Source: Pseudovirgaria hyperparasitica (Eukaryota). Taken from it: 64,000 bases of DNA. Position numbers and translations under genes: made by a program. The stretch lies in the NCBI GenBank assembly GCA_010093815.1, contig ML996575.1. One strand, written 5' to 3'. The notes beneath the pieces are model-generated. The model was given only the letters and a program-made list of their open reading frames with translations. It ran no database searches and was not told the origin of the DNA. Shown here one piece after another: positions 40,130 through 64,000 of this stretch; position 1 is the first letter of the stretch, and every line of letters begins with the position of its first letter.

Positions 40130-40953
40130 TATAAGAATAGAGTTATTAGATAGTAGTATAGTTAGATAGAATAATAGGGTGTATTCTATTATAGAACGAA
40201 TTACTACCAAACCCTTTTAGTAGAAATCTAAGAGTATATATATAAAGGGACGCTAATCTATCTAGTACGTGACTATTTACCGCCCTTTACGTTACCTTCT
40301 AACTCTATTAGCTAAGGTATATATAGATCGGGTTCTACCTAAGGCTAAGTTCTAATAATTATCCCTTCTCTCTAGGAAGCTACCCTTAGCGACCTAGATT
40401 ATTATCTATCTCTATATCCCTATTCTAAGTCTCGTAAGACCTTAGTTATTCTTTACACTTTATCCTAGATATTTATTAATATTTACTAATCTAAGATTTA
40501 TATAAGTGTTTTCCTAATAAACTAGATTTTATCTATCCTAACTTCTTATATAGATAAGATTACCTAATTAGGCCTAGCGTATTATGTAATATAATTAGGT
40601 AAGCCCGGGTACTACCTATATTAAAATCTTTTCTTAGAAATATTCCTTTCTTTAAAAAACTTCTTAACTCTTTATAGAGTTTTTTAGATTATTAGGTATA
40701 TTACCCGATCCTTATAGATATAGATTTATATAGATTTACTATAATTTAGTATAATTTATATAATTTACTAATTTTCGTACCGTATTTAGCTAGTAATAAT
40801 AGTAATCTATAATAATCTATATAAATTAGTAATAATCTTAATATAGTTTCCCGAAATCTTAACGCTCTAAAGCAATTAGCGCGGAAATAGGCGCCTTTAA
40901 ATAATCCCTATCTCATATACGTTACTAATATATCGAAAGCTATTAATCTACCC
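40130..40953 (-). mobile_element. 3' end of an LTR retroelement: LTR about 40130-40357, PPT about 40358-40374
   Basis: RIP-ed termini TATTAGAA..TTCTTATA (from TG..CA), preceded on the minus strand by TAGAGAGAAGGGATAAT. It interrupts the hAT frame at the junction. Internal part not decodable. Confidence 0.45.
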
Positions 40954-41317
40954 TGTAATAGATATAACTAAGGTGTTACTACAATGGTAATTAAGATATA
41001 TTATAATTTAACTTAGAGAGAGTAGGGATAAGCCGTATGGTTATAGCTTTAAGTATAGTCTTAAGCGAGGTCACATAATACCCCTATACTAGTCTCTATC
41101 CGTCCCGGCTCCGTTATATAATACTAGAGATAAGGTAAAGCCGAAGTCTATAATATACCCTTATTCTCTAGGATCGTCCTAGGGACCGGCTTAGTATTTT
41201 ATATAATAATAACCGGCTCGGTTAGGTCTTAGGTTTACGGTCTTTATATCGTACTATATAATAACTATAGGGCTATATATTCCTTCTAGTAAGGTAGTAG
41301 CTTTTTATAGTAGCGTT

Positions 41318-41560
41318 CTAGCGGTTACGTGGCGGAGGTAGGTTCTTTATACTATGGTATTATAGATTATTAGATCGCACCGTGGTAGTATATTATAGTT
41401 ACGTCCTAGTAGTTACGTAGCGGAGGTAGATTCCTTATATTATAGCGTCGTAGGTTATATAATTATAAGGTAATAGAATCTTATAGTTATGTTATAGCGG
41501 TTACGTAGTAGAGATAGGCTTCTCGTATTATGGTATACCGCGTCGGGTTATATAAAGGTA
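41318..41560. repeat. About three diverged tandem copies of an about 88-bp unit in the Gypsy #1 3' region
   Basis: tagcggttacgt(g/a)gcggaggtag.. recurs at about 41319, 41407 and 41495. Confidence 0.75.
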
Positions 41561-41873
41561 GGATAGCCTACGTACGAACCGCGCGTCCTATTTTATTATT
41601 ATCCGTTTTAGGACTAGCTACTCTCTAGGCTAGGGGTTATATAGTAGTAGTAGGGTAGCTTATACACGACCCGTGTTTATTATTATTATCGTCTATTTTA
41701 GGACCGGCTCTACCCCGGCCTATATAATTTTCCCTAACACGAGTATATAGGTCCCACGCCTAGCGACTTTCTTCTTCCTTAACTACCCTTACACCTACTA
41801 TCTTAATACTATATAGTAGCTACTATAATATTAGTAAACTTATATACTACCTCGCAGCTTCTATACTATTATT

Positions 41874-43340
41874 ATAAGCGCTCTAGACCTAAATAGTCCT
41901 ATTATAGAAGCCGGCGCCGTCTTAGTGGTGGCTATAGATACTAGAGGTTAAGACCCTAACGATCGTCGCGCGCCTAGGCGCTAGAAACTAGCCGATCGCA
42001 CCGTGAGTAGGTCCTATCTCTACGCCGTTTCTTATACTAACTAGATAGACTATTCCTTCTACCGCACCCCGATAGGCTAAGTCTATTTACTATATAGAGC
42101 TATATATTATAGAGGGTAACTCGTTAGAAGACGAGCGTACCAAGTCCGTATACTTTATATATTATATATATATAAAGGCCCTAGAGAAAACTAGGGTGCT
42201 TAGGTATATACCGTCTCTATGCCGTGGCGGCGCCTACTAATCTTAGAGCGTAGCTATAAGTCTAGCCGCGGTACTAACTATATAAAGTACTATATATTAA
42301 AGGGAACCTACTTATAGAATACTAAGGAGCTCGCTATATACCCGGCCTTATATGAGGCGTAGAGTCGTCTTAAAAAGTTTATATATAAGTCGGTTAATAA
42401 TAACTTTAGCTATATAACGGACTATAGTAGTCGCGGCCTAGACCTAATAAAGTCTTCGTCCGGTAAGTAGCCGCGTATAAACTCTAAGTTCTACTATCTA
42501 TATAAGAACTATAAGTCTAACTTAGAGATTATCTATATCACGCGACGTAATACTAGTATTATTAGTTAGGCTTCTATAATATCTTATCGTGGCGCCGTAA
42601 TGTTATTTAAGCCGCTATATCGCGGTAGTAGTAACCGTAGCTAGATTAGTAGCGTGATTTACTAGATAAATTAGTATATATTCTATAACGAGGCCTAGAT
42701 AGGTAAGCTACGCACTAGTATCGGTACCTTATAGGTATATAAGCTTTATAAGTCTAAATATCTATTCTAACGCGTAACGTAGGGTACTATATAGTAAGTC
42801 GTATCTAGGTTAGCCCGCCTAGCGGAGCTACTATCTCGCCGCCTTATTACTTAGATAGTTATAGAGGATAAGGAGCCCTTATTAGGTAGTAGCCGCTCGC
42901 GCCGACCCCGGCCTATAGGTCATAGGGAGTCGCCGACTCGGAGCTCTCGCTATCACCCTATTAGGCCCCCCTAGCTCCCTATCGCCGCCCCTCCTCGTAA
43001 GTCCTTACTATCTTATTATTAGCCCCGGACCCCTCCTCGCTACTATAACCGCTCCTAGTCCTACGAGCGTTATAGCCGGTCCTCTATCCGCTATAATTAG
43101 TCTCTCTACTATCGTAACCGGTTATATAACTATCGTAACCGGTCGTACGACCGTTACCGTCGCTCGGGTAGCTATCGGTACCGTTCCTACGAGGATTATT
43201 AAGCGTTACACCGCTATTAGTTACTAGTCTACCCCCACTATAACCCTTCTACGGACGAGTATAACTCGCCCTCGCTACCCGCCTAGATTAATAGCTACTA
43301 CTATTATTAGGAGACGGCCTAGGGGAGGACTAGATAACTA
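41874..43340 (+). pseudogene. RIP-ed antisense accessory gene inside Gypsy #1, intron-containing, Cys-rich with RS/H-rich tail
   Basis: Intron gtgagt..ctaac..tag at about 42003-42048. De-RIP CMKCHVSKGTCSW (C-x2-C-x6-C) and RSQSHERHGRS..HRDRSYDHRDRSYD. Confidence 0.55.
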
Positions 43341-46300
43341 ACCTTATATTAGGATTTACGGATAAGGATAGTACCGGCCCTAGTACCGTGTAAACCTAGG
43401 GTAGGGCTAGGTAAATAACCTTTTTATGTCTTAAGGCGGGTATTAGTTTATTATTAGGTTATACTAGGTACTAGTGTTCGGCGTTTATTTCTTTCTTTCC
43501 TAAAATCTCTACTCTTATATTAGGTTATCGGGGCCGCTATAGACCTATAATAGTAGAGTAATATTACTACTTAGAGATGTATTAGAGTCGTAGACCGTTA
43601 TATAATCGAGTATTACTATATCTAGACTCGAACCGGTCTAGCGCCTTAGTATCTTCTACGTCCTTAAGTGGGACCTATATTAGTTATAACTAACCTTTCT
43701 ACTTTATAAGTATCTATCGCTTATTCCGCCCCCGTGTATTTTTTATATATAGAATATTCTTAACCTTATACTCCGCGACGTCCTCGTCTACTTTATTAAG
43801 CTTAAGCGCCGGTTCTAGGCGGGTATTAAGCCGCTCTTAGCTAGGTAGAGAGTCCTCTATAGCGCGCTTAATAAGGCTTATATAGACTATTTTATAAAGG
43901 TCTCTAGGGAGGTCGAGGGTTACTATTAAGGGGGTGGGTTAGGCTATAACCCGGTATTTTACCTATAGCTAGTTAAGTTTCCGGCTTAGATAGTTAGTCT
44001 TCACGTTCCGGAGGGAGAACTATACTATATTACTAACCTTAAAACGCTTAGCTAGGCGTTATAACTAGTTTACTAAGTCTTAGGAGCGCTACTCGGCCTA
44101 GGTAATAGCCGCTTAAGCTAAGGTAGTACTATCCTAAAGGTATTTAAGAAAATTTATAGCCTAACCTTTCGCTAAGGTCGTAGAGACGTTAGAGAGTAGC
44201 TACCGTAGTAATAGTTTAACGTAGTATCCGTTTAGAAGTAAGTTTAGCGCTATACTAGTTACTAACGAGGTACGGTTATTAAGGGTAAGCTAATATACCG
44301 GGAGATATTCCGGCTAGTTAGTTTACTCGAAAGTTACTATAACGCGTAGTACGGCCTGTATCTCCTAGTTTATACGCTTAGTACCGCCGTCTATCTACGG
44401 GTAGTAGGCCGTAGAGAGGTTCTAGCGTACACCTATTATAGAGTAGAGAGTTATCTAGAACTATCTAAGCTAGTCCGAGCCCCGGTCCGTAATTATTAAC
44501 TAGAGGAACCTCCGGAAACGCTACCACGTATTACGGAACCGTATAGCGTAGTCCTTAGCTACTATAGAGGTTATCGCCTCTAGCTAAATAAACTTTAAGA
44601 GCTAGTCTATAATAATAAGAAGATATTAGGGCTAGGACGGGTCTAATTAGGGGAGGTCGGTTATAAAATCTATAGAAATTTAGGACTAGAACTAGTCTAG
44701 CGTTAGAAGAGGCTAGAGGAGGCTAGGGGCCTTACGTTAGTTTATATAGGCCCTATAGTAGTTATAGTTTCGCATGAACTACCGGATATTAGTCTATATC
44801 CACTTCTAGTAGTACTCCCGCTAAATAGCTACGTAAGTTTTATTCTTACTAGAATAGCCCGCGAGGGGGGAGGTATAGAACTTCTAGATAATAGTTATAG
44901 TAAGGGGTTCCTACTCGGGTACCTAAATAACCCTCCGCTATATTAGTATTCCGTATACTAATATAGCGTAGTCTATAACCTATTTAGTAGTAAGCGCCTC
45001 TAGTAGAAAGAGGCGTGCCTTACCTACTACGGCCCTATAGCGGGCCTAGTATACCGGGACTAACCGAATAGTCTAGTTCTAGAGCTTCTAGAGGTGGGGG
45101 TTAGTAAAGATACTTCGTCCCTAGGGGAGATAGAACTCCCTAGAGCGGATACTTACTAGTACTATTTTAATAGCCCGTAGGGTTATAAGCCGTCCCCTTA
45201 GAAGGGACTTTTTAGATAAGTTCTAGTTACGGCGGCTTAGAGTATCCGGGCGGGCCGCCTAGAATCCCGGCTAGTATATAAGGTCGTAGTTAAATAGTAT
45301 AAGCTAGTCGGACTATCGTTACTACTATAGGATAAGAAGGTAAGACTTAGTAAAGTACTCGAGGTTTTTATAGTCTATATAGACTATAAAGAGGCGGTAG
45401 ATACTTCGGAGCTTAGGTTCCCACGCCTAGAGGTACTAAACTACTATAAGAAGCTCCTTATCGTAGATTATATAGTTCCGCTAAGCGGCCGTAAGGGCTA
45501 TGGAATAGTAGGCTACCGGGTACTAAATACCCTGAACCTTTTAGGATAGGTATCTACCCGTTACGTATCCGGAGTAATCCGCCTTAACTATTATATCGCG
45601 TGTCTCGTCCTAGGACTAGAGGATTAGCCCGGTAATAAAAGCGTTCTTTAGCGTATTAAATGCGTGGTCCTCAGCTAGGCCCTAGTAGAAGGCCGTTCCG
45701 GCCTTAGTAAGGGCGTAGAGCGGGGCCGCTATAGTAGAGAAGTTAGGGAGGAAGTTATAGCAGAAGTTTATAAATCTAATAAACCGCTAGACGCCCCGGA
45801 CCGTAGTTAGGGGCTCCTAGTCCCGGATAGTAGTAATCTTCTCTAGGTTAGGGCGGATTAACTCTCTAGCGGTAATAACGTAACCTAGATACTAGACCTC
45901 CTTAGTAGCGAAATAGTATTTAGTAAGGTTATAGTAAAGGTCCGCCTTTATAAGGAGAGATAGAATAGTTTTTATAGCGGCCTAGTAGTCTTCTAACGTA
46001 CCCGGGGTGTATATAAGAATATTATTAAGATATACTATATAGGTAACCCCAAGAACCCCGCTTAGTACCCTATTAATATAGCGCTAGAAGGAGGTAGAGG
46101 CGCCGGAGAGACCGAAAGGGAGAACTATCTATTTAAAGAGGCTAAACCGGGTATAGAAGGCCGTCTTATATTTATCCCCGGTAGCGACCTATAGTTTATA
46201 AAATACCGCCCGGATGTCCACCTTACTAAACTATAATATATTACTAATAGTATATAGGGTCTCGCGTATAAGTAGTAGCGGGTATCGGTCCTATTCGGTA

Positions 46301-47197
46301 ATACTATTAAGGGCCCTATAGTTAATATATAGCTACTACTTCCCTCCCGGCTTAGAGATAAGGAGTACTAGCGCCCTAGCCGCTAAGAAGCTAGCCCGTA
46401 TCTATCCCTTATCTATAAGATCCGTAAGCTAGCGGCGGAGCTCTATAAGTTATTCCCGAGATATAGTATAGAGGGGTCCCTAGGGGAGGTTTATAGGGGT
46501 TCCCGCCGGTATAGACTTAATGCGGATATAGTAGTTAGTATTCCCTCTATAGAGAGGTAGCGCCGACGCCTTTTCCTTATTAAAGAGATCGTGGTAGATA
46601 TATAGTATTAACGGGAGCGGGCGCCTATCCTCCGTAAGCTTAGTCGCGTTCTAGTTAGGTACTAGAGGTAACTAGAGGAGTATAAGTTATAGGAGGCGGG
46701 TAACGTCGCGAATACTAGTAGCGACTACTCGCCTACGGCGGTAAGCCGTCTCTAGACCCCTAAGAATACGGCCCTTCTCGGTAAGGACCCGGATACTTAT
46801 TAGGCGCCTATAGGTATTAATATCCTAGGCTATAAGGCCGTGGGCGTGGTAAAGTATAATTTCGCCTATATATATATTAATAATAGCGCCGGCCTAGTAG
46901 AGCCACGGGCTCCCGAGGATAAGGTCCCGGTCTAGCCTAGATACTATATAGGCGGTAAGGTGTTATCGCCACCCTATAATATTATACTAGATGGTAACGA
47001 CTTCTATAATCTCTAGTCCTAATACTCTATTAGTAGTAAGAGCTACTTAACGACGTAGGACCGCATTAGGAAAGATACAGCGCTCCCAAGTACTCCTAAG
47101 TACTCCCTAAGTATTCTTTCATCCCATTATATCCATTAGGCGGACCTACTTACTATCTATCCCAACGGGACGGCTTTATATAATTTATACTAAGTAT

Positions 47198-47244
47198 TCC
47201 GTTTATACCGAACGTCCCGTTTATACCGAACGTCCCGTTTATAC
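47198..47244. repeat. 18-bp tandem repeat running into the assembly gap
   Basis: ccgtttataccgaacgtc repeated about 2.6 times directly before the Ns. Confidence 0.85.
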
Positions 47245-47484
47245 NNNNNNNNNNNNNNNNNNNNNNNNNNNNNNNNNNNNNNNNNNNNNNNNNNNNNNNN
47301 NNNNNNNNNNNNNNNNNNNNNNNNNNNNNNNNNNNNNNNNNNNNNNNNNNNNNNNNNNNNNNNNNNNNNNNNNNNNNNNNNNNNNNNNNNNNNNNNNNNN
47401 NNNNNNNNNNNNNNNNNNNNNNNNNNNNNNNNNNNNNNNNNNNNNNNNNNNNNNNNNNNNNNNNNNNNNNNNNNNNNNNNNNNN
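47245..47484. other. Assembly gap (240 N)
   Basis: Run of n, flanked by tandem repeats on both sides. Confidence 1.
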
Positions 47485-48495
47485 CTACTCTATCTACTCT
47501 ATATACTCTATCTATTTTAATAGAAGTCTCTTTTCTAAAGTAATATCTTTATCTAAAGTATCTCTATAACTCTATATATCTTATTATTCTAAATTATATC
47601 TTTAGTATATTTAATTATAGTCTTTAAATTTAATACTAGAAAGATAGTATATAATAGAGAGTAGAGGTTAAAAATTAATTAGACTAGGAACTTAAATTAA
47701 ATGGTACTATTCTAAGCTCTCTCCGACTATATAGCTATAATAAAATATAGTAGACCTTCCTTTCTTCTACCTTTAGGCAGTGTCCTTTATCTATTAAAAG
47801 GTGTCCTTATCTAGAACTACCTTTAATAACCTTTTCTCCCACTAGACACTTCCCTCTATATTTCTAGTTACTATTTTTATTCTCTCTTATATTATCTATT
47901 CGGCCTCGTGGTAGTCTATATAGTTCCCTAGCTATATACTAATATCCGACTTCTCTTAAAAGTATACACTCTTTATATATAGGTTAAAGACCCGACTTGA
48001 ACGTCCGCTACCATCTAACTTTATTTTAATTTAAGTATCGGTCGGGGTAGATAGACTACTAGTTAAGGTAGCTATAACTAGGGATAATAAGTTAGTAATA
48101 GACTTATTCATACTATACGTATATATACTATTATTTACCGTTCCCGCGGTTACTTAGAGCGGGTCTATACTTAATACCTAAGATAGTATAATCTTATCCG
48201 TAGCTACTACCAGTAGTATAGAACTCTCACCTATATCTAATGGCGCATGAGATAATTCGAGGTACTTATCTAACTGGTTTAGAGTATCCGACTTATCCTT
48301 TTTATAGTAGTTAGTATCTATATAGCCTCTATAACTTTAGTATATACTTATATTACCTAATAGCTTAGACTCCTCACTCTCGTCTAAGTTATCCACATCT
48401 ACTTTAGAGAAGTTATCTAGGTTATCTTTATATGGGTTTATATATATAGTGTCCGGGTCGATTAGTGTTAGTACTATAAATACCGATGCTATTAG
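47485..48495 (-). pseudogene. RIP-ed ORF of unknown function, divergent from the Plavaka transposase
   Basis: Long frame broken only by TAA/TAG, with one intron-like segment (gtaat..ctaac..aag) and a 9-nt repeat end (atagagtag). Confidence 0.45.
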
Positions 48496-50468
48496 CGATT
48501 TTTAAATATAGTTAATGCGGTAGGGCGCCTAGTTCGACCATGTTAGGCTTAGCGCTCGCTATTCCTCTATATAATTTAGCACGCGATTAGATAAAGGTAT
48601 ATATATATACCTAGTATTAGTAGAGAGCGTGCGAATCTACAGCGACTAAAGGACGAGTTCGGCGCCCGCCCGCTACTATATTCATTAAGGGCATACCTTA
48701 TTATAATATATATAATGGTAATCGTAGATGGTGGGATCGGTCAGAATATACTACTATAGTACTCCTTCAATCTAAGGAATCTTAGAGACTATAGTAGAAC
48801 CAACTTTAGAGCCTTAATTACTACTAGCCCTACGAACATTTTCTAAGTTACGCTAGTATTATACTAATAATTAGTAACACGTCTAACACGACGTAAGTAA
48901 TATACCTTTACTCCTATATACGCGTTATTACGTATTAGATTACTTATACTAGCTTTTCTCTTCTCGGCTATCTCCTAGTCCTAGTATTCGGATACTATCT
49001 ATCTAACTCTAGAGAGGAGTTAGTAACGGAAGTCCATTATATCTTCCTTTACTAGCGTAATAACATAGGCGGGAGGTATGTTTTATGAATTGTAATTAAG
49101 GTAGTAGCTACCAAGATTAATATCTCCGGCGGCTGTCTAGACCGATTATACTAGTATCCCAAAACTATCTAGGCTACTATCTAGCCATATATTAAGGCGA
49201 TCGAATACCGGTGGTAACCGGCCTAAAAACGTTATAGTGATCGAAATCTCTATTATCGCGAGGTACCGGTCTCGTTTATAAGGCTAGAGACTATCTCTAT
49301 AGGACCGCCTCTTTTCACGGATAGTTAGTTCCCTCTCTACTACTATTTCTCTATCTTCTTCTATTAAGCTAGATGGCTAATACGGTAGAGAAGAGGACGT
49401 AAGGCCGTTATATCCCCGGTTACTATTACGGTAGAATGTTACCGTAACGTCTAAGCTATATAGGGCGTTACTACTATATTCGCTGCCGGTATGCCTAGAC
49501 TACTAGGTTATTAGTAGATAAACGAACGCGTCGAGATAAGCTAGGTATATATATACACGTTTTTTATGTCGATGGCTATCGTGTAAGTCCCTATTATTAA
49601 TACTAATACGTGTCTACGTTATATCGTATCTTCGTTTACCTATCCCGTTTAGTTTACTATAGTTACTAGATTGTCTTCTATTAGTGTTACCGCCATAGTA
49701 GCTAGATAGTCCCTTAACCGTCTTCCGTGTTAGAGGTCCTATAGAGAAGGTATATAAGAGATTAGTAGATATTTTTATTAGTAATGGGTCGGTGACCTAC
49801 TAGGCGATAATATTAGGTAGCGGGATAATAACTAGCTAGTAGACATAATAAAGGTTTAGGCGTAGACTAATATAGTGTTTTTATAGACGCGTAATGCTTA
49901 CGCGTTATTATTAATAATTTTAAGCGAGCGTGTATAGAAATTAAGGGGCTAAGAGCCGGGTAGAAGTCGGGGGTTAGTGGGTATATGTCGGGCTTTCGAC
50001 GGGCTTACACCTAACTTCTTTCGGTATACGCCTAGAATATCCGCCGTATACCGTATTATTACCATCTACTAATGATTATACTATAGTATTTTTCCTTTAT
50101 AGTAACTACACCTCGAGATACCATAGGCTATAGTCTCCTACTAATACTATAGTAGAAAGATTAGTAGTATATACTATATAATCCGTAGACACTATAACTC
50201 GGAACCGTATAGACGAGCACGGCTTACCGCATCGCTATTATTATTATAACTATTAGGCCCGTGGCTACTACTATTAACCGGGTCACGGCGCGGCTTTAGT
50301 ACTCGTAGTTATATTAGTCGATAGAACTCTTTGGTTCGCTCTATTAGTATTTAGCCGTCGAGTATTAATTAGGAGTCCGGGTCTATAGAATTAGGTACTT
50401 CTACTACTAATATTACCCTATATAAAGACACCACTATTTTCCCTAATCCTATTTCGGACCTGGAATCT

Positions 50469-53444
50469 ATGGACGGCGTTACTAGTAGCTATAGTACCGA
50501 TTTAGTATATTAGTCTAATATATATAGTAGAAATACTATGTCCATGGCGACGAGGGCGTCTAGTACTATATATTTAACGAAAACGTTCGAAGAGGAGAGT
50601 GGTATATATATTATAGTAGACTAGAGTAGACGTGATAATCCGTCCGACGTAAGTATATATAGTCTAGGTTTATAGTAGTAACTGATTTAGTAGGCCCGAT
50701 TCGGTTAATTCGATAGTAAGTTTATAGAGCGCCTTATAATATAGATGAATCGGTTCGGTATTTCGAATGTAGTATACGATGAATTAACTACTATCCTTAA
50801 ATAGACTTCCGCTATACCCCCCGACCTTTTTATACTAAAATCTAATGTCGTGCGTAAGTAGTTATTATACTACCCTAAAGGGATACCGCACGAAAGTTAG
50901 TAGCGTAGCTACGATATATTTAGTACTACCATAGTCGAATACTAGTATAGGGATCCGCTTACGTTAGTGGAATTCCTCCTTAGGTACCGACCGTTCGCTA
51001 GTAAGCTTATGTTTAAGCCGGTATAATAATTTACTAGTTTAGGCGACCGGGTATATAGTAAAGCCTATATAGTAGATAGTTAGTAGGATATGTACGCTAC
51101 TATTCCGGATAGTACCGTCGTCGTCTCTATTGTTTTATCTTCGGATAAGACGAACCTTACTAACCATGGTAGTAATAGAGTAGCATGGCTAGTCTACCTA
51201 TCTATTTATAATCTACTACTAAACGTCCGCTTATCTAGGAGTCTACTATTATTTCTACTACTTACTCTATTACTAGTAGTTAAGCTAGAAACGGTAGCGA
51301 ATTGCTTTATGTTCCATTAGGTTATGAGTAAAGTTCTAGTCTATATATCTACCCATAATAGAGTCGTTAACTATGCTAATTATTATATAGCGTTATAGGC
51401 TATATAGAGTACTAGAGTCCTAGTATTATATGCTAATGGCGGCTCGCGTAAGTACTATCCACGTTTAGCTTTATATATTATAGATTTTCCGGAGTAGGTG
51501 CTTATCACGGGTGTATCCCATTAGTATGCATGTCTAATATATATAGTCCCTGGTAATAGACGACAGTATCTACGAGAAGCCATTACTAGTATATAGAAGT
51601 TCCGTATATACTCGTCGTTATAGGAATAGGTTTACCGTATACGTCGCGAGTTAATAACTAATAGCCACGGTAGCGAGTATACTAGTAGTGAGATAGATAA
51701 TAGGACGAGTATACCCGGTGTCTTATCGTTTTCGTCGACGTCTTTCGCGCTAGTAGCATAGGGCTATTATATTCGCTAATCGGTTAAGAGTCGGTATTCT
51801 AGTAGGTGGATAGAGCTATTAGATAATTTCGCCTAGTCACTTACTAGAGTTAATATACACCGCGCGGTCGCTCCGGACATTCTATATTAACTATATAAGG
51901 GTATATTAGAACACACGTTTAATTAGATAGTCTCGTATATTATTAATTAAGAGCGTACGGGACATAAGTTAAAGGGTATGTTTACTAGTATACCCCCTAT
52001 AGAACGAGTAAAGAAGGCGATCGATAAGCGATTCGCGTCTATTAGGGTATTCGGTCGTCATAATCTACTCACGTATATAACTTTAGTAATATAATAGACG
52101 GGGGCGATGTTTAAGCGTATACTAGTAGTGTTTATAGTCGCGTTTAAACCGCTCCTATATTATGATCGACACTTCCTAAGCGCAGTGCGGGCGGTTATTA
52201 ATATATACATGTTAGCGGCGTACCATACGCATGATACGTAGATACTAGCATACTTAGAAGAGGCTATATTACGCTTAGACAACCTAAAATACTAGTTTAT
52301 ACCATATCGTGGATATAAATCGGAGGATAATCATTTTAACTTTCCGAAGTTCCATGTATTATCGTACCTGGTTAATGCTATTAAATACCATGGTTCGTTA
52401 CATCTAATATCGGTAGAGCTACTAGAGCGATCTTATATCGTAGTAAAGGAATTATATCGAGGTTTAAATAAGAGGGAGACGTTTCTATAGTAGATGCTAG
52501 TAGTAGACACACGCACGACGAATACTAAAATCTCTAGTAGTATAGAGGTGGCGGCTAGTACTAGTATATTAGTGGCCCCTAGCCTAGAGTAGCTCGATAA
52601 TATACGTAAGCTAGTCGGCCAGCGGCGTATTCTAAAGGAGCCACGCCGGAGTAAATATATACTCTACGTCTTATAGAGCCATAGACTATCTATATTCTAC
52701 TAGACTACTATCGGCAACCTCCACGACGTGTATAGTGGTAGTTTTATATTACTCGATACGGTTATACCCTTTATACGTAACTATCGTAATCGGCTTATCG
52801 GGGATAATATATCGAAAGGTACGAATGTCGAACGTATTAAAAAGGACCCTTCGTGGGCACGGGTCCTTCCTATCTATATATACGAGACTATATATATACC
52901 GATACGACTAGATAGAGACATATCTATAGAGGCCTTCGACCCGATTCGGGTAAGGTATACCCGCAACTAGTAAAAGAGTAGTAAGGCTAGGGAGGATTAT
53001 ATAATGGTATAGGAGTTTAACGAGGGTAGTAACCACCTTAACGGGAAGCGGGTTAGTAAAGTCCGTATGTTTCTAGAGGTATATAATATAGAGAGTATTG
53101 ACGTAACCAGTGGTATAGTAGCGCGATTCCTAGGTGTGTTAGTTAAACTACTTAATAACTTAGGTAGAGGTAATGTCGATACTATTAGTAGTCTTATACT
53201 ATTACGTATAGCGGGTTAAAGGTCTAGTAATAAGACTCGTACGATGGATAGGTTCCGTGTCTACGAGCTAGAGCATGTCCTACGCCCTATATAGATTATA
53301 TTATATTAGTTAGTTATGGATGGTTCATTCTAGTTAAACACGTATAGTAATTAGGGGATCTATAATAAGGTATATAACCTAGACTTCTAGGCTATAAATA
53401 GACGAAACGTGACCGTAGCGTTAAAACACGGGCGCGTGTCGTAA
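50469..53444 (+). pseudogene. RIP-ed Plavaka-family (CACTA-related) transposase
   Basis: De-RIP: YRDPL..VEFLL, RVYSEAYTADSWWDM, IVLSSDKTNLT (SDKT 51141-51152), AWPVYLSI.NL, CADG..RKCYPRLA.YI.DFPEQ, CP.C.VP, PDILHQLYKG, IDKRF, FNFPKFH.L.H and E..ERSHI..VK..YR.SNK. Confidence 0.9.
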
Positions 53445-53891
53445 GTCTATCGCTATCTACTACCGCCTACCATAGTATACCGGCATATACCGGCATATAG
53501 CGGAAGTTATGGTTTATATATAGTAGCACTCGATAGTCATATCCTACACTAGGATATCTCTAAGGAATAATCGTGGTTTATTACGATCGGTTCTATAAAA
53601 GGCTTATATTTAATAACTATCTATAATTTTAGCCAAGGAGCATCTAGGGATACACCTCCTTATTATCTAATAATTACTAGCTAGTATAAAAACTCTACGC
53701 CTCTAAAAGGGGCATATAGAACTTAAAGGATCCTCGTTCACGGGTAGAACTAGACACGGATAGTATTAACCTAATATAGATAGATTATATACATTAATAC
53801 CCTGAAATCCGAACTATGTCTCTAGGCCTACTAGACCTAGCTCGTACCCGATTCTAATGTTTTCGTTATTCGCGTTTATACCTCGTTAGAT

Positions 53892-54020
53892 ACCGGGTAT
53901 ATAACGAGTCTATGGTTAAGTAAGTGTTAGGTATATAACGAGTCTATTAATGAATAAGTGCCGGGTATATAACGAGTCTATATGAATAAGTATAAATGAG
54001 TATATACCGGGTATATAACG
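53892..54020. repeat. About four copies of an about 35-bp unit
   Basis: ccgggtatataacgagtctat.. recurs four times downstream of the transposase. Confidence 0.8.
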
Positions 54021-54137
54021 CTCTTACTAGGGAAACGTCTTCCTTAAGTATCTCCCCCTCCTAATATTTCTCCTTCTCTTCCTTTATTCTTTCTCTAGCC
54101 TTATAAGTATAGTTAGACTTATATTACTATATTATCG

Positions 54138-56850
54138 ATGTGTACGTTCTTATATAGACCGTTAGAAACTACGGTAACTAGATATACGTTCTCGTAATAG
54201 ATAAATATACCGCACTAATGCGTCGTATTATTCGTGTTTAATATAAGGGTTCGCTACTATAATTATTCGTTATTACGCTCGTCTATCTCTTCTTAATAAT
54301 AGTACTAATCGATAACGACCTATTATAGAGATGATAGTTAGTATTACGTACTTCTCTTAAATATTCGTATATTAATATTATATAAGCACATGCTTCGCGG
54401 AGGTCCTCTATCCTTCCCTTAAGCTACCTAGACTATCCCCTAATCGCTAAAAACTCTTATATCTAACTATTTCTACTATTTATTTCTTGGTTCTACTTGT
54501 TAGGCTTCGAACGATAGCGAACTACGACGGGTTAGCGGTTATCTATATTTTACGTATACCGAGTTAGTATATCTGAATATAATAGATGATAGTGTGTTTA
54601 TAATAGTATATACTAGATCTTATAGTATTCCTCTTTGGCGGTAGATCTATATAGTCGTAAAGACGGCCTACTATCCTATCGTGCCTATATACTACGCTAC
54701 TCTTTTATCATATATAGATAGTATTACCGGAGTAGGGCCATCGCCCGGTAAACTTAACGTTATATATAGAGTATTATATATTTAACGTTGTTATTTCACG
54801 TGCCCTATATTAGTGCGGGATCGGATACCGGCCGTATATTTCCCCGCCTCTATTAAATTAACGAGTTATTACCGAAAACTATACGGACTACTCGCGTTAA
54901 TGTAGCCGTAACGTACGTGTTATACCTACGCCTATTATATAGTGTACATGCCTATTATATAGTGTACATGTCTCGTCTCTCTATTACCCTAGTAATATAT
55001 ACTATTCCCTATTCCGTCTACCTATAGCTACGTCCGGCCAGCCGCGAATAAATAGCCGAGTAGAAGCGAGTCTCGACCTACTTTATATATTCAGAGCGTC
55101 TAATAGGTAGAAACTTCGGGTATACATGGAAGAGTTGATTTAGGAGGAATTTACTAGCCTATTACTAAACCTACGTAGTAAGGAAGTAAAGGACCACCAT
55201 ATAAAACGAGAGCGTTACCTATAGACAGTCATAGATGAATGTATATTTATTAACGGTAGTTATACTATTTCACGGGTAGATGCCATGTATTAACTTAATA
55301 CTATATTCTTAGTATTTACGCGTAACTAGCGGCGGTTGGCTAAATACTATCGTATACGTTAAAACGATGCCCCGGGCTAGACGAGCCGTCGTAATATTAT
55401 ATATACCCTATGAACCCGCCTAATATATCTAGCTAACCTAGTTATTCGACTGTCGGACTACTAGTATCTATATCTTCTAAGGTAGCCGTGCCGCCGTATT
55501 ATATATATATGCCTATAGTCCTTATCCGCGATTATACTCGGGTCACCCTAGTACTAATAACGGCTATATAGAATGGCACGACGCCGTTAAATATTAAGGG
55601 TGTAAAAATACGCGATATAGTAGGTCTTAGTATAAATAAACTATTAGAATTTATTAGCTCGTCTATGGATATACTAGGGGACGTAGGCGGTTATAGGCAT
55701 GGTCGCGTCTACCTAGAGTACCCGATTCTACCGAGCGAGTCGAGTGATATAATCCTTTATAAGGATAGTTTAGACTAGGTATTATAGTAGGCTATTAAAT
55801 AGGTACTAGGCTTAGGACTAGATCGGGTGGTTTTCCGCGTGGGCGATATAAATGGTATATTTAGAAGCCTACTATAACGTGTTAACTATAATCCAACTAT
55901 ATAGGAACGTCGCGCTATAAGTATAGTAGCGGGATTCATCCGTCTAGCGCGTGTAGGTAAGCTCGAGATATATATACGCCGATAGATATCGGCATATATC
56001 GACATATTACGACTACTAAGCGGTATATACTAATGTATACTAGTATATCCGGTATATACTAGTATAATACCGTCGCTCTTCCGTGGACATAATACCATTT
56101 ATATATCTTAGGTTTTCGGTTATCGGTTACGTATAGTATCATATACACGGCGGATACCTTACTAGATTTAGGTCTTTCGTCGATAGTATATAGATACGCC
56201 CTAGTCCACTCGATATAGGTGTAGTTAACGCTTCACCTACTTAAACGATAGACGTTAATAACGATACGACTAGTATATTTACCTATTATATTATTAGCTA
56301 GCTAACGTTATATTAGGAGAGTCGAGCGCCGCCGTCCCGCCTACTCCACCCGTCGATGTTAATATGCTAGCGATTATAACCTAATCGCCTTACGAATCGA
56401 TATATAATGCCGGTACGCTTAAGAGTTCGAGCGAACGTATAAAAGTCTAATATTATATACTATTTAGGGTCGGGGAGGAAGCGCCTACCGACGTAGTAGT
56501 TATTAAGGCGATGGTAGAAGTCTATATATAACTAGATATACTAAGTCCGCCTCCTTCTTATATGGTCCTATTACTAGATAATGTTACCGGTTTTAATATT
56601 GCGGGAGAGGAGTTTATAGACACGAACCCATGAATATCGGTATAACATCGGCTCGATAGTACGTATTATAGTATAAGGTAAGTTATATTTAAGCGGTAGT
56701 TAGACACGTGCGCTAGTATACTAACGGATATATAGTGTCTCTACCATGAATAGAATAGGCAAGGCATGGCTAGTAATATCTTACTACCTAGAAGAGATAG
56801 TTACCGTAGAATTTAGGAGATAGGCTCGGCGTCTATGGCGTTAGTGTGTC
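54138..56850 (+). pseudogene. RIP-ed multi-exon ORF(s) of unknown function
   Basis: Several 80-130 codon stretches with mostly RIP-type stops (about 54500-54910, 55127-55400, 55510-55855, 56310-56680), separated by intron-like segments. No family recognised. Confidence 0.4.
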
Positions 56851-57242
56851 GGACGGTTGAACTTTTATATAATACTATTCACTTATACCTATATTTACCT
56901 AAGCCCCGATTCGATAGCCTTCTATAATATACTATATACTCGGTCGGCGAGCTACTAGACTCATATAATAGTAGTATACTACCCCACTTTATATACTACT
57001 TAAGCTACTATTACTTTAGCCTACGTTAATCTTAGCTTCCTTTAGTCGTCCCTATGTTATAAAAGAAAACTTCTATAAACCTTTCCTCTACTTATCTTGG
57101 TTTTTAAACCTAAATCTTACCTTCTATACTTTATTCCGTGTTAATCACGACTATATATGAACGCTACGTTAAACTCGACTCTATTAACCCTTAAGGTCTA
57201 TTCCATATAATAGTTAACGAGGTTATATTTATAGTTTATAAT

Positions 57243-60175
57243 ATGGATTAAGAACTCGTTATATTCGGCGATGTTTAGGACTAGTCTACGCTCGACGTAA
57301 TTAAGCCTTACGTTTAAGCCGAGTCTCACGTTTAAGTCGAGCCTTACGTTTAAGTCGAGCCTTATACTTAAGTCGAGTCTTACGTTTAAGCCGAGCCTTA
57401 CGTTTAAGTCGAGCCTTACGTTTAAGCCGATCCTTATGTTTAAGTCGAGCCTTACGTTTAAGCCGATCCTTACGTTTAAGCCGATCCTTACGTTTAAGCC
57501 AAGCCTTACGTTTAAGCCGATCCTTACGTTTAAGCCGAGCCTTACGCTTAAGTCGAAGCTTACGATACGACTACCGTCTTAACCGATAATAAACCACTCG
57601 TCTTTAGTATACTTACTAGTAACTACCGTCCTAACGACGAGTATAAACTTAAGAAGGTCTAAAGTAGTAAGGCTCCCGTTCCTATTTACGCCACCTATTA
57701 GATCTCTCTTATATAGGGCGATCTATAGTTAACCTTTAGGAATATCTATAGTATTAGTAGAGAAACAGATGGACTTAAGTAGAAATAAGCGAAAACTTAA
57801 GCCGAGCTTAAGCTAGTAGTATTTAAGGCTCGTGGTAAAGGTCACGGCTTCGAAGAGTTAATTAGTTATATATATAGATTCCTTGAATTCCCTAAGTACC
57901 GCTCTTAGATTAAGTTACGTGCTCGCTTCCGATGGATTAATAAAGGGAAATCGGTATCCTTAATAAGCTTACTCCGCTTCAATCGTACTAACATCCTCCT
58001 ATTATCCGACCACCCTATAGTATAGATCTTTAAGGTTAAGTAAGTAGACGACTTTATCGAGTATTTTCCTAAACTTTCTAATCTCATTGTAAGCGAAGTA
58101 GATAAAGCTAATATACTATATATTAACACCGGCCTCTACGAAGACCCTCGCGACTTTTAGGTTATTAAACTTATAGCTAGCGAGCTTCTTAGTGTAGGTT
58201 TTACTATCCCGTTATATATTAGACCCGATATAATATATAAACGAGTGAAGTAATTCTTTGAAGATCTAGGTACTTATACTATAGTTCGTATCTTACTACC
58301 GCTACGTAACCCTATGGATCTTACCGGCTTTAATAATAAGCTTAAACTAGAGAGCGATCCGATTAATTCATGGTATATAGAAGTTACTACTCCCTATATA
58401 TAATACGGCATAATAAGTAGGCCGGATACTTAGCCCTAGATCTCTATTCTCTACCGCGAGTCATTCGATAAGAAATTCGACTACCTAATATATATCGCTA
58501 TAAGTACCTTATAAGATAAATAGGCGGATCTTCTATTATCCTAATTCCAAGACGTTACCGTCGGGTATATCTAGCTCTTAGGTGTTACTCGGGCGCTCTT
58601 AGCTATCGTCTATCCCATCGATGCGAAAGAATTCTATCGCATAGAACCAGGTAGTCGTAGGTACCTTAAAGTGGATTCAAAGGATTATAATAACGACGCG
58701 TACCGCTTTAAAGTCCTTCCATTTCGTCTAGGCGTCCTTCTATTCGAATGTCTCGCTCTAAAAGTCTTCGATAAGGTTAGGCGTCCTCCTAAAGTACCTA
58801 AGATACCGATTATATTAATGGATATAGTTACTAATGTAACTCGAGCTCGTCCTAAACATTTCATTCGGACTAGTAATACTAGTTTAAGTATAATCGGGTC
58901 GTCCCTTACTACGCTTATAGGGTTCATAGACGTTCCGGCTTTAGTTAGCGTATAAATCTACAATAAGCTTACTAAGTAACGCATTAATACGTGCTAGAAA
59001 CTAACCTACCACGCCGTGTAAGCTCCTAGAGACGGCGGCGTAGACGACCACGCCGCTTAGGATGCGTTTAATACGATAGTCCTTAATGTTATCGTGGACT
59101 CGGTATCTATGTCTCTAATACATGGGTCCCCTAACCCTAATAACGAGATTCTAGATCATAGTACGGAGCCTTAGGATACCCTCGTTACTCTTTCTAAATT
59201 ATCTATATCCCTAGATAATAATAAGGACACGAATATAGAACATAGTCACGATGTTATTAGCAACGAAGGTTCCATTACTAGCCCCGTCGCCGATATACAT
59301 ACACTCCTAATATCGTCCAAAGTCTACTCTAGTGTCCTATCCCCTTTACTACCCTCCGTATAGGATCTAATACTCGGTAATAACTATCTAAATCTTTAAC
59401 CCGTCGACTATAACCGCTACGTTAAAGATTATAAAAGATTCTACGATCTCTAGGATATTATACCTTCGGAACTATCTCCCTAATAATGGTATGTCTATAT
59501 ATAGGCGACGGACGTACTTAGGGCTTAGTTCCTACTTTACGGCTATGGAGAAGCTAGAAAGAGCTATTTATGGCTTCGTCTACTACTAGCTACACTTCTA
59601 ATTAATAAAATAAACGGTGCTCCTATCATCGCTTATACTACTAAGGTAGTTATTCTATCTAGCGATGTAATAGCGCACCTCCCTACGCTAGGTTCCACCT
59701 AAATATATAGAATATACATACATGTTATTATCGGCCTAACTAACGAAACCTACGACGACGCTATAAGAAAAGCATATAAATATACGAGTAATATATTTAC
59801 TCGCTATAAGTCTCTAAAGATACTAGTCGTTCTTTAAAGATGCCCCGAAGCCGTTAATCGAGAGGTTTTCTTTACTATAGCTAGACTATCTTATCGCGGT
59901 AACCCTCTTATCGGGCTAACCTAGAACGATATAATAGACGGTACCATCCTCGCGTAAGCCTAGGCCGACCATAGTAAACGACCATTAGAATATAGCACGG
60001 ATCCCCGTACTCGTCTATGGAAACTATATACCGGTTACGTTGCGCTCGAGGTCGTTAGACTCGTTAAATCTCGATACCAATACGAATGGATCCCTAAGAA
60101 TTTCGAGAAAGAAACGGCTCGGCTATTACGCGCTATCTATAAACGTTACTATTAGGACGGGAACCATAATAGACC
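57243..60175 (+). pseudogene. RIP-ed Upf1/DNA2-NAM7-like SF1 helicase, N-terminal about 970 codons, truncated by Gypsy #2
   Basis: De-RIP with legal CpA/TpG reversions only: Q-motif ELSPQQ (59469), Walker A FLLHG.GEAGKS (59529-59564), motif Ia HVIIGPTNETCDD (59721) and LVVL.R. One possible frameshift near 58400. Confidence 0.6.
57303..57554 (+). repeat. 14 x 18-bp coding tandem repeat, de-RIP (E/D)PHVQ(A/V)
   Basis: ga(g/t)ccttacgtttaag(c/t)c x14, in frame with the ATG at 57243. One unit retains CAC. Confidence 0.9.
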
Positions 60176-63100
60176 TGTATAGACCATTCTAATCCATGTA
60201 GCTACGTAGTGGCTAGAGCTGGGTTAAGTTAGCTAAGTTAAGCGAGGTTACTATATAAGTAGACCGTATAAACCGATTCCTACTCGTTAGGAATTAACCT
60301 CGTATAAGAGTAAGATTACTCTATAAATATATTCCTATGTCTCTCTATAAACTATTAGACTACTATCCTATATCTTCACTCTTTATATTTTAATTCCTCT
60401 CTATATAGCACGATAGTAGCTTATAGAGATAGCTCCTACTACGCGCTATAATACCCATGGCACTATCTTATACGAGAGACTCTCTCTAAATCTAAACGAA
60501 GAGAATAGTCTCCCTACGACCACCTCTACTAATAAGTATACTCTATAGACTATCGTACTAATAACTAGTACGGCATTCTATATAACCATAGAAGATTACC
60601 TAGATAATAAGGAAGGAGTCTATTATACTCCATCGCGGTCTAGTTTATACTATACTAGACCCATCCTTACTATAAGACTAGACCCTATTAACGTTAACGA
60701 ATTAATTTATTAGAACCGACTAACGTTAACCACGCCTTACGACGATATATATACTAAGCTATACACAGAGAGATAGCGTTAGGCTTAGCTTAAGTAGTAA
60801 CTTCGCGAACTTAACGAAGCGCGAGAACGAACCGCTAGACTCGAAGCCGTACTACGCGCTTTAGTACTAGTAGTAACTAACCTATACTAATATAGACTAA
60901 CTTAAGCCGAAATAGTCTAACTAAGTCTATTACTATCCCAGTTACCTTAGCCTAAGAAACTACCTTACTTTAATGGTAAAACTAGGAGGAGCTTTTATAA
61001 ATAGGCTTACTAGTATAGCTAATTCTTCCACCTATTCACGAACGATAGTAATAAGATTAGGTTCGCATAGAACTACCTAGACCTAACGCTATCTGAACGT
61101 TAGATAGTATATTAAATTAAACACCCTAAGGATACGTATAACTAGGACACGTTCACTAAATTCCTTCTTTAATGCTTTGGTAATAGAGCCGAGCGACGCG
61201 AATAGACTTAGAGCTATATCTTTAAGACTTAATAGCGAGAGAGATAATCCCTATTATAACTCCTCGAATACCTCCAACCTCTTTAGAGAGAAGCTAAGGA
61301 AGATTATATAGTTCGATAATACGACGACTTTAAAAGGTCCCTTAACCCGAGTGTAAAGGAACGCATCGACCTTATAACGTCTATCCCTACCGACCTTTAG
61401 GTACTTGCGAATCTTATAGAACGATATTAGCGTATAATAAATAACTAACGTTATATAGACGCACGACTATCTCTATTAATCTAATCCGATACGAAATCGT
61501 CTAAAGAGGACCGGTTTAGTAATAGATTACGTAGAATACCTCGTGGGCACTACTACTCTACGAACTCGAGAAGACGAGACCCGTACCGCGGATCTTTCTA
61601 CTAGTCGATATATCGAGACGCGAGAAACGACTCGTATAAATAATCTAAAGTCACCTACTATACCTATAGTAGGATAGGCTATATAGCACCCGAGTGCCGC
61701 TTAGGGAAACCACTAAATACTAATATAGATACTAAGTTAGTTATATACTATAAGTGCTAGTAGCTAGGATACATCGCGTCTAACTACCCGGTATACGATA
61801 TAAAAAACTAACTACCTATAAGGAACCCTCGCAACTCGTAGGCGTAACTAAAATAGAGGGATAACCAGCTAACTAGTACATCGAACTATAGGCTAGGCCT
61901 ATTAAGGTCCCTCGTGGATAATATTAGACCGTAATACTTAATAGCGGTTTAGCTACTAACGTTATATCGACTTAACGAGCACGAGAACTTAACGTTAATA
62001 TTTAAGTACTAATAGATGCTACCTTCTATAGTATCGATAGTCCTATTAAATTATAGGGTACCTATACTATTAAATACGGCATCTAGGATAGCGGGGGGAA
62101 GTAGAAACCCTACTACTTAACCTTCATCGTAGTAGATAGTCCCTTCGACATAATCCTTAGTATACCATAGCTCGAAAAATATAACCCGAAACTAGACTTC
62201 ATCTAGAAAACAGCTAGCTAGCGCATGTACCCACTATAATAGAACCTAGTATAGCTAGTTAACGACGAATAATTCTAGAAGGACTATAAAAAGGTAATCT
62301 CCGCTATCTACGTCCTCTTACTTACTTAAAATAGAGAGCTTAGTATTAAAGTAAACGAAAACCTACTATATTAGTATAAAATATACTAATATATCGCGTT
62401 AGTGATCGACTTATCTAAATTACCTTAATACTAACCTAACGACCTTACTATTAACCTTAAAGACGGTTAATAACCCCTATACGGACCTATCTACCCTCTA
62501 TTAGAACCCGAGCTATAGGTCCTCCGAGAATACATCGAAAAGAACCTTACGCGAGGATAGATTAGGCCTAGTATATCTCTAGCCGGAGCTCTAATTCTCT
62601 TTATAAAGAAGAAGGATAGGAGTCTCTATCTATGTATTAACTACCGTAGCCTAAATAATATCACGCGAAAGAATTATTACCTACTACCTCTTATCTCTAA
62701 GTCTATTAATAGACTAGGGCGCGCGAAGATCTTTACTAAGCTCGATCTACACGACGTCTACTACCGCCTATATATTAAGAAGGGCGATGAGTAGAAAACG
62801 GCGTTTAGGACCCGTTATGGACACTTCGAGTATATAGTGGTCCCTTTTAGACTAACTAACGCGCTAGGAACCTTCTAAGCGTATATTAATAACGCGCTAG
62901 TAGGCCTACTCGATATAACGTGCATCGTATACCTTAATAATATCCTTATCTTCTCTAATAACGAAGAAGAATATATCTAGCACGTACGCGTAGTCCTAGA
63001 TAGGCTAGAAAAACATAAGCTATATATTAAGCTATCTAAATACGAGTTCTACTAGGACCACGTTAACTTCCTTGGCTTCGTTATTACTAATTAAGGTATA

Positions 63101-64000
63101 ACCATAGAAAGGGATAGGGTCGCTACTATCGTGGACTAGCCTAAACTAAAATTAATTTAAGATATACGTGTCTTTATTAGATTCGCTAATTACTACCGAA
63201 AATTCGTTAAGTATTTCTCCCGGCTAGTAGCACCGCTTAACGCGCGTACTACCACTATAGATTCGTCTATTACGGTCCGCGGTAGATAGAAACAGTGTAA
63301 TATTAAATCGTAGCCTATAGAATTATTAGAAGGCGAAAGGGCCTCCTTCGAGAAAATTAAAGAGGCATTTATAACTGCCCTATTACTAGTGTACTTTAAC
63401 CTAACTAAACCTATCCGCGTCGAAACCGACGCGTTAGAATTTATAATCTTAGGCATTCTCTCCTAGCCTAGACTAACTAAGTCTAAAAAGGTCTAATAGT
63501 ATCTAGTTACGTTCTTCTCACGTAAAATAGTCGATGTTAAGACTAGATATACTATCTATAACCAAGAGCTACTAGTAATAGTAGAGTCGTTTAAATAGTA
63601 GCGATATTATCTTAAAGGTGCCATATATAACGTCGAGTTACTAACTAATTACTATAACTTAAAGGGGTTTATAAGCACGATAGTTTTAAACTATTAATAG
63701 GTCTAATAGGCTAAGTAGCTTATAAACTTTTACTTTATAATCTACTATCGACCTAGAAGTATAAACCTAGCTAATAGAATATTAAGAAGACCTAACTATA
63801 AAGAAGGCGCCTAGGATTATAGTAGCTATAGGGTCCTAGAGTAGCTATAGGCCTAACTCTTAAGGACGAGGTTAGATTTTAAGTTATTAGACGATTAGCA
63901 AGATACTAACATCAATACCAGTAATCAAATCTCTAAGACCGAAGCCGGTAACTAAAGACGCGGTACCGAAGTCCCTAGTAGGCCGTTTATTAGCGCTATT
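60176..64000 (+). mobile_element. RIP-ed Ty3/Gypsy #2: 5' LTR about 60176-60407, gag with two CCHC knuckles, protease, RT, RNase H; continues beyond window
   Basis: LTR TGTATAGA..TCTATA(T<C)A. De-RIP CYTCGRMGHIAPEC and CYKCQQPGHIASNC (61656-61788), LDSG (61937-61948), YGPIYPLS, KTAFRTRYGHFEY, YLDD (62930-62941), PIRVETDAS. Confidence 0.93.

Follow-up and report, generated by a model that had tools for sequence, protein, structure and literature searches.

A RIP-inactivated multicopy Plavaka transposon, probably of the PlavakaB type, with a DUF6532 accessory gene and putative additional cargo in Pseudovirgaria hyperparasitica

The 64,000-nucleotide stretch analyzed here (the window), part of contig ML996575.1 of the ascomycete Pseudovirgaria hyperparasitica (assembly GCA_010093815.1), contains between positions 47064 and 60175 what is probably the left part of a multicopy cut-and-paste DNA transposon of the PlavakaB type with a CMCT/EnSpm-like DDE transposase. 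This copy is dead, having been inactivated by repeat-induced point mutation (RIP). A left terminus, a DUF6532 accessory gene on the opposite strand and a Plavaka transposase follow one another in the order found in intact relatives. They are succeeded by at least 7 kb that probably belong to the same element as extra cargo and that carry a putative P-loop nucleoside triphosphatase (NTPase). The original prediction for this DNA had been a giant Plavaka-type element of at least 13 kb, equipped with a Upf1-like helicase and several further genes.

The transposase relic is read in a single frame interrupted by approximately 38 in-frame stops. Stops occur throughout every frame of the repeat region, and frames were therefore translated with X at stops. 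In this form, the transposase matches Pfam family PF18759 with 101.5 bits (cut-off, 26.3; E = 7.2e-29) in two stretches, the better of which spans 50925-51536, and it matches three basidiomycete Plavaka proteins, with the best match to P0001 (E = 2.9e-13). The LSSDKT core block (L291, S292, S293, D294, K295, and T296) is invariant in all four aligned sequences, the relic included. For other family motifs, a single copy offers a weak test, as RIP turns cysteine and histidine codons into tyrosine codons. The sequence is thus a Plavaka-type transposase relic, as had been proposed, and the proposed placement of Plavaka among CACTA-related transposons agrees with Kojima 2025 (PMC12730594). Pfam scans covered six frames of 47500-57000, the three plus frames of 56800-60600, and the three minus frames of 57600-60600. 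Real matches across these scans of 47500-60600 numbered two: PF18759 and the DUF6532 family, PF20149.

The boundary at 47064 (CATTAGGAAA / CATTAGGAAAG...) is a Plavaka terminus. PlavakaB elements (CMCT clade) have the termini 5'-CATCA..TGATG-3' and target site duplications of 2-3 bp (Kojima 2025, PMC12730594), and the left terminus in the window equals PlavakaB CATCAGGAAA with one CpA>TpA change: CATTA at 47064 is CATCA after a single substitution of the kind that is the signature of RIP. The degenerate motif CATYAGRAAA has one match in the window, at 47064, which by count alone is not significant (at least one match in 34 of 100 shuffles). The same position coincides exactly with the end of the reading of Gypsy #1, a relic of a long terminal repeat (LTR) retrotransposon. 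In the minus frame read from 47100, Gypsy #1 matches RVT_1 (E = 2.8e-15; approximately 45874-46359), RT_RNaseH_2 (E = 4.8e-15), and RT_RNaseH (E = 5e-13). Its protease tail, DLILGSPWL, lies at approximately 46.9 kb; the reading ends just to the right of this motif, at the junction, and no D-S/T-G protease part follows there.

Further evidence for the left end comes from contigs of two public sequencing runs (X1 and X2), which were aligned to 44500-64000 at a likeness of at least 80%. One contig joint fuses Gypsy #2-like sequence to the terminus (62076>47064), and another connects 47192 back to 47067 (47192>47067), which indicates that likeness in other copies begins at approximately 47064 beside different flanks. 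Subterminal repeats are present at 47083-47113 (10 bp, 3 copies) and 47199-47244 (18 bp, 2.6 copies). The earlier proposal that the block begins where the Gypsy #1 protease is cut was therefore correct with regard to the junction and incorrect with regard to the start, which had been placed at 47078: CAGCGCTCCCAAG, the proposed first bases, sits 14 bases inside the element.

An alignment of the three basidiomycete proteins and the relic was used to scan metagenome contigs. Of the 282 pattern-matching stretches that it gave, 235 encode a relative, and analysis was continued with the best 80 (L001-L080); the same query found no Plavaka relatives in viral contigs. L012, which is among the loci nearest to this transposase by tblastn, contains an element of 7322 bp (6197-13518; CATCTGGAAAAATCTT.../...AAGATTTTTCCAGATG) with the flanks GGA|GAA and the inverted ends CATCTGGAAAAATC.../...GATTTTTCCAGATG. 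The element of L019 is 6231 bp long (1578-7808), ends in CATCAGAAAAACGG / CATCAGGAAAACAG, and has the same 10-mer at both ends. In the 80 loci, CATYAGRAAA has 20 matches, distributed over 17 loci, compared with approximately 4 expected in random sequence of that size. It lies where the left end is expected in L021 and L005 and where the right end is expected in L022, L023, and L004. The left end and the transposase are 3.47 kb apart in the window, compared with 3.7 kb for L012 and 3.4 kb for L019.

The DUF6532 domain in the left arm was detected by PF20149 (E = 7.1e-7; 29.7 bits; cut-off, 24; profile positions 47-180 of 194). A low-stop stretch at 49389-49808 shares the frame of the domain, and another, at 47980-48549, lies in a different minus frame. 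As these stretches flank the domain on the minus strand, the separate "divergent" and "Cys-rich" open reading frames (ORFs) of the original prediction are most simply explained as one gene. The divergent ORF at 47.5-48.5 kb was real as a low-stop minus reading (47980-48549) and is mostly part of the DUF6532 gene rather than an ORF of its own. At 49.4-50.0 kb, where the Cys-rich ORF had been placed, the DUF6532-frame stretch was found instead, and the frames viewed had no cysteine richness.

In the window and in six independent metagenome loci, DUF6532 is located in the interval from the left end to the transposase and is encoded on the strand opposite to the latter. Pfam detected it in L012 (E = 2.1e-8 and 1.2e-5), L019 (E = 7.1e-16), L026 (E = 1.3e-17), and L034 (E = 4e-9). 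A small hidden Markov model built from the Pfam-detected copies matched L021 and L031 in the same place and orientation; this model is insensitive, as it missed L012 and the window. In L014 and L015, which are identical in sequence, DUF6532 is downstream of the transposase and on the same strand. The distance from the left terminus to DUF6532 is approximately 0.7 kb in L012 and L019 versus approximately 1.6 kb in the window, assembly gap included. A role of DUF6532 as a dedicated accessory gene within the element, as in the intact relatives, is supported. Of the dedicated accessory genes that had been proposed, at least this one, with its conserved place and strand, is borne out, and the proposed helicase gene is not. 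The one publication found to name the domain makes no link between DUF6532 and Plavaka elements; in it, DUF6532 is named beside Plavaka, KDZ, and Pkinase_fungal merely as one of the domains enriched in some genomes.

The composition of the window is ordinary up to 37 kb, and from there to the end of the window the DNA is RIP mutated. TpA/ApT is at least 1.46 and (CpA+TpG)/(ApC+GpT) at most 0.46 in all 27 one-kb intervals of 37001-64000, versus (CpA+TpG)/(ApC+GpT) values of at least 0.98 in all 37 intervals of 1-37000. RIP indices are even across 47-60 kb (0.18-0.34) compared with 0.05-0.12 in Gypsy #1, in line with the similar degree of RIP that had been noted over the whole block. Self-comparison of the 64-kb window revealed two tandem arrays only; no part of the block recurs elsewhere in the window, and no LTR mate was seen. 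Aligned contigs on 44500-64000 numbered 25333 (X1) and 11079 (X2) and covered 30 of 30 bins. X1 and X2 represent one sample, which is probably the source of the assembly, and they therefore give no independent support and no information on other strains. Differences between the X1 contigs and the block are transitions at 883 of the 890 places listed. Summed contig depth, which is not a copy number, is 16-28k over 47.8-60.1 kb in X1, and individual diverged contigs have depths of approximately 200-340; the comparison suggests copies on the order of 100. That the block at 47-60 kb is multicopy, RIP-mutated DNA is confirmed.

Mean summed depth does not differ between the two halves of the block. 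For 47755-53613 and 53614-60123, respectively, the values are 21.2k and 21.1k in X1 and 9.57k and 9.52k in X2. The halves differ by no more than 1% in either run, and depth has no step at 53-54 kb, which favors one unit of at least 13 kb. In addition, no right end of the expected PlavakaB type (...TTTCCTGATG / ...TCCTGATG) was found in 53.1-60.2 kb with a degenerate 13-mer, an ungapped 41-mer (transitions tolerated), a 12-mer, or the subterminal motif. Gapped local alignment, also with transitions tolerated, gave a best score of 24.0 compared with a shuffle mean of 27.3 (standard deviation [SD], 2.9; 60 shuffles); with a null mean above the best real score, a gapped search of this kind is weak in RIP-mutated DNA. 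The earlier note had singled out 53.5-57 kb as the place where element ends would contradict a single unit, and the searches found none there. Because Gypsy #2 interrupts the block at approximately 60176, the right end of a single unit would lie outside the window. The proposal that a block of at least 13 kb moved as one multicopy unit thus holds for its Plavaka type and for its multicopy state before RIP, and its size is favored by the equal depth and by the searches for an internal right end. We consider it reasonably likely, on balance, that 47064-60175 is the left part of one RIP-inactivated multicopy PlavakaB-type transposon with putative cargo.

Several observations weigh against a single unit of this size. 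The two relatives delimited by terminal inverted repeats (TIRs) measure 6.2 and 7.3 kb; their right ends come 1.0 and 1.3 kb past the transposase, and end-motif matches in L004, L022, and L023 place the right end 0.2-1.0 kb past it. When six frames of 47000-60400 were compared with the 80 loci by tblastn, all 86 matches were within 50500-53200, i.e., in the transposase; outside it, there were none at an E value of ≤1e-3 and noise only at an E value of ≤10. A helicase family was matched by none of 158 flank ORFs of the metagenome loci (45 from 10 loci and 113 of 117 listed). None of the contigs, copies, or relatives examined connects the 54-60 kb part with the transposase, and in such degraded DNA a short right terminus might escape recognition. 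Equal depth is to be read with the limits that contig depth is not copy number and that X1 and X2 are one sample, probably that of the assembly. Finally, the 240-N gap falls within the left arm.

The most serious alternative, which we regard as possible but doubtful, is an ordinary Plavaka of approximately 7 kb (47064 to approximately 54.1-54.3 kb) with a RIP-damaged or deleted right terminus, adjoined by at least one unrelated repeat that is of unknown family and, by coincidence, of similar copy number; the P-loop reading would then be unconnected with the transposon. Relatives have such dimensions (6.2-7.3 kb; transposase and right end separated by 0.2-1.3 kb), and none contains homologues of the 54-60 kb part. 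Depth in X1 is slightly lower at 54.3-56.2 kb (16.4-18.2k) than at 47.8-51.7 kb (20-25.6k). Moreover, two weak end-like strings were seen by eye near 54.06 and 54.29 kb (GTATCT..TCCTAATA at approximately 54.05-54.07 kb and TATCTCTTCTTAATA at 54280-54298), and their deviations from ...TCCTGATG are of the RIP type. However, neither string exceeds chance in the gapped alignment described above, and both were dropped for this reason. An ordinary element is also at odds with the equal mean depths of the two halves in both runs, and the minus reading to the right of approximately 54070 is not a continuation of the Gypsy #1 protease or gag (no gag or RVP match). Furthermore, no known transposon protein family is present in 53.7-60.6 kb: the scanned frames of this region contain no reverse transcriptase, integrase, other transposase, Rep, or tyrosine recombinase, whereas the equally damaged transposase still scores 101 bits.

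The readings to the right of the transposase themselves provide few clues. Between 54453 and 56852, the stretches 54453-54902 and 55353-55772 have three stops each, and the region has no match in Pfam or PHROGs and no homologue at an E value of ≤10. The multi-exon ORFs proposed for 54.1-56.8 kb therefore persist as low-stop readings, with no family or homologue to name them. The number of repeats in the 18-bp tandem array that follows varies in other genomic copies (joints 57336>57378 and 57399>57332). The motif TATACCG had no convincing clustering.

The reading beyond the array, which had been taken for a Upf1-like helicase, has approximately 37 stops in 858 codons, similar to the transposase. 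Its sole identifiable motif, a candidate Walker A with the sequence GYGEARKS at 59541, becomes GxxxxGKS if the single TpA in GCT-AGA is reverted. The reading matched no Pfam family at an E value of ≤1 (plus frames of 56800-60600 and minus frames of 57600-60600) and no PHROGs family, and a comparison with PDB chain sequences at an E value of ≤10 gave one spurious match only. None of 1.84 billion representatives matched at an E value of ≤0.001, and a word-index search gave none at an E value of ≤10. The motifs Ia, II (DExx), and III (GDxxQ) of superfamily 1 (SF1) helicases could not be placed in the approximately 211 codons between the Walker A motif and Gypsy #2, RIP reversal being allowed, and SNF2_N and Helicase_C have no match in the block. 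A single-sequence AlphaFold2 model had a predicted local distance difference test (pLDDT) score of 36.3 and was useless. With no helicase family, PDB chain, or homologue matched, the helicase assignment is not supported, and the RIP-damaged Walker A motif points to a putative P-loop NTPase relic as what the data carry.

The history of the copy may be reconstructed as follows. It is inserted in the protease part of the older Gypsy #1 and was later split at approximately 60176 by the far more abundant Gypsy #2. Its core corresponds to the intact relatives of 6-7 kb, with the CATCAGGAAA... terminus, DUF6532 on the opposite strand, and the transposase approximately 3.5 kb from the end. If the block is one element, the reading or readings of unknown family, the 18-bp tandem array, and the P-loop NTPase-like reading of approximately 860 codons would be cargo in the same mobile unit, which would have been amplified to an order of 100 copies and then killed by RIP. 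As in other Plavaka, the transposase would presumably have bound short TIRs and subterminal repeats and excised the element, with a target duplication of 2-3 bp on insertion.

A more far-reaching interpretation, to which we give little credence at present, is that an ascomycete PlavakaB has grown from a two-gene form of 6-7 kb (DUF6532 and transposase) to a giant form of at least 13 kb through acquisition of a set of genes, among them a large P-loop NTPase with the 18-bp tandem array ahead of it, and that this NTPase was a dedicated transposition helper, for instance a helicase or a factor of the AAA+ type for target or DNA handling. Bacterial transposons provide parallels for NTPase helpers in MuB, TnsC, and IstB. 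To our knowledge, such a role has not been described for eukaryotic cut-and-paste elements.

A scaffolding artefact is highly improbable. The body of one copy would in this case have been connected across the 240-N gap with the terminus of a different copy or with an unrelated contig, and the block would not start at the Gypsy #1 cut. The gap is indeed separated from the left end of the element by just 181 bases and has tandem arrays on either side, and none of the X1 and X2 contigs listed bridges it. Nevertheless, the order and orientation of the terminus, DUF6532 (minus), and transposase (plus), together with the spacing between terminus and transposase, match L012 and L019, which argues that the gap does not join unrelated pieces; the distance from the terminus to DUF6532 is longer. 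Tandem arrays commonly cause true in-place gaps. Least plausible of all is a different giant element, a Starship or Helitron carrying the Plavaka relic as a passenger, which would suit the size, the readings of unknown family, and the P-loop motif but is contradicted by the Plavaka terminus at 47064 and by the lack of any DUF3435, Rep/HUH, or PIF1 match at an E value of ≤1 in the scanned frames of 47.5-60.6 kb (all except the minus frames of 57000-57600).

Table 1. Locations of features in the window and of accessory and neighboring genes in metagenome relatives
Feature	Location	Strand	Remarks
Gypsy #1 relic, LTR retrotransposon	41000..47063	-	Cut within protease at Plavaka left end
Plavaka left terminus	47064..47244	+	CATTAGGAAAGATAC...; subterminal short repeats
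Assembly gap, 240 N	47245..47484		Left arm, between two short tandem arrays
DUF6532 accessory gene relic	47980..49808	-	Domain at 48633-49064
Plavaka DDE transposase relic	50535..53099	+	Single frame
Low-stop reading(s) of unknown family	54453..56852	+	Same strand as transposase
Tandem array	57304..57564		18-bp unit, 14.5 copies; just upstream of P-loop reading
Long P-loop NTPase-like reading	57600..60175	+	Candidate Walker A at 59541-59564; cut by Gypsy #2
Gypsy #2 relic	60176..64000	+	5' LTR, gag, protease, reverse transcriptase, RNase H; interrupts block and runs off window
DUF6532	L012:6852-7182	-	
DUF6532	L019:2226-2657	-	
DUF6532	L021:1825-2280	-	
DUF6532	L026:5783-6346	-	
DUF6532	L031:5941-6396	-	
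DUF6532	L034:6950-7612	-	
PF17667 gene	L029:6388-7566		
PF17667 gene	L041:4950-6527		
PF17667 gene	L047:3725-4753		
PF17667 gene	L050:4701-6140		
PF17667 gene	L051:14047-15267		
PF17667 gene	L058:5747-8250		
PF17667 gene	L059:9663-10361		
PF17667 gene	L066:14010-14750		

The block is flanked by Gypsy relics on both sides, as had been recognized from the start, with #1 on the minus and #2 on the plus strand and with RVT_1 and RNase H matches in each (Table 1). Gypsy #2 matches RVT_1 with an E value of 3.3e-20 (approximately 62603-63085), together with an RNase H match. At the bin starting at 60124, which corresponds to Gypsy #2, summed depth in X1 leaps from 19k to 120-305k, approximately 10 times that of the Plavaka block and Gypsy #1 (16-28k), and Gypsy #2 may be the dominant repeat of the genome. 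To the left of Gypsy #1, the RIP-mutated stretch 36800-41000 is strongly AT rich (GC, 0.28-0.36) and contains a tandem duplication of approximately 174 bp at 39669-40027; there is no Pfam match in any frame of 36.8-41 kb.

The metagenome relatives have further neighbors. In eight loci of a more distant Plavaka subgroup, the transposase is followed after 1-2 kb, on its own strand, by a gene for a PF17667 "fungal protein kinase", which may be another Plavaka accessory gene. Fragments of KDZ transposases (PF18758) lie on the minus strand 2-3 kb upstream of the Plavaka transposases of L040 (7317-7997) and L066 (7251-7925), which looks like nested or neighboring elements of the two families. NACHT/NPHP3_N-WD40 (NLR-type) genes surround Plavaka elements in the flanks of L012 and L026 and in L051 (2146-5837).

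The element resembles described PlavakaB elements in its PF18759 transposase, in its 5'-CATCA... terminus (CATTA in the window, after one CpA>TpA change, and CATCAGCAAAACGG at the start of the consensus of Plavaka-11_AB from Agaricus bisporus), and in the possession of accessory genes inside its ends. It differs in its RIP-active ascomycete host and in its recognized accessory gene, which is DUF6532 and not TET/JBP, the cargo of fungal Plavaka in Kojima 2025 (PMC12730594). The consensus cell for Plavaka-11_AB has 9895 characters (PMC12730594, Table S1), compared with at least 13.1 kb in the window without the right end being reached. L012 and L019 share with the window the terminus motif, the opposite-strand DUF6532 in the left arm, and a transposase 3.4-3.7 kb away from the left end, and they differ in having their right ends 1.0-1.3 kb past the transposase, where at least 7 kb follow in the window.

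Giant Plavaka elements are described from the red alga Bostrychia moritziana, where they measure 17.4-19.1 kb and have three accessory genes, PAG1-3 (10.1101/2025.02.11.637652). Their cargo includes an N6-adenine methylase with SET and a ParB-like protein with 2OG-oxygenase. The combination of a transposase with several accessory genes, an internal tandem array, and very many mostly degenerate copies is a likeness to the window. Tandem arrays are found beside an accessory gene in the algal elements, and the array at 57304-57564 in the window lies beside the P-loop reading. The domains of PAG2 (DNA methylase, PF01555, and SET, PF00856) have no match in the scanned frames of the block, and PAG1 and PAG3 have no Pfam model. 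The word "helicase" is absent from 10.1101/2025.02.11.637652, and in the excerpts of Kojima 2025 (PMC12730594) it refers to Helitrons; the literature, which was available in part, yielded no account of a Plavaka element that carries a helicase or P-loop gene. Plavaka elements of Tuber (PMC12581995) resemble the present one in their Pezizomycotina host, short TIRs, and 2-bp duplications; their TIR motif is CATAC, and the excerpts of this paper mention no cargo.

The stretch in the window is itself dead repeat DNA. The better-supported, smaller result concerns DUF6532, a fungal domain with no function assigned, which emerges as a recurrent companion of Plavaka transposases within the elements; this association places the domain in a context, and annotators can use it as a marker. 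Should the entire block be a single element, Plavaka of a RIP-active ascomycete would reach sizes and copy numbers so far described only in red-algal Plavaka, with different cargo. If true, giant cargo-carrying mobile elements of fungi would extend beyond Starships.

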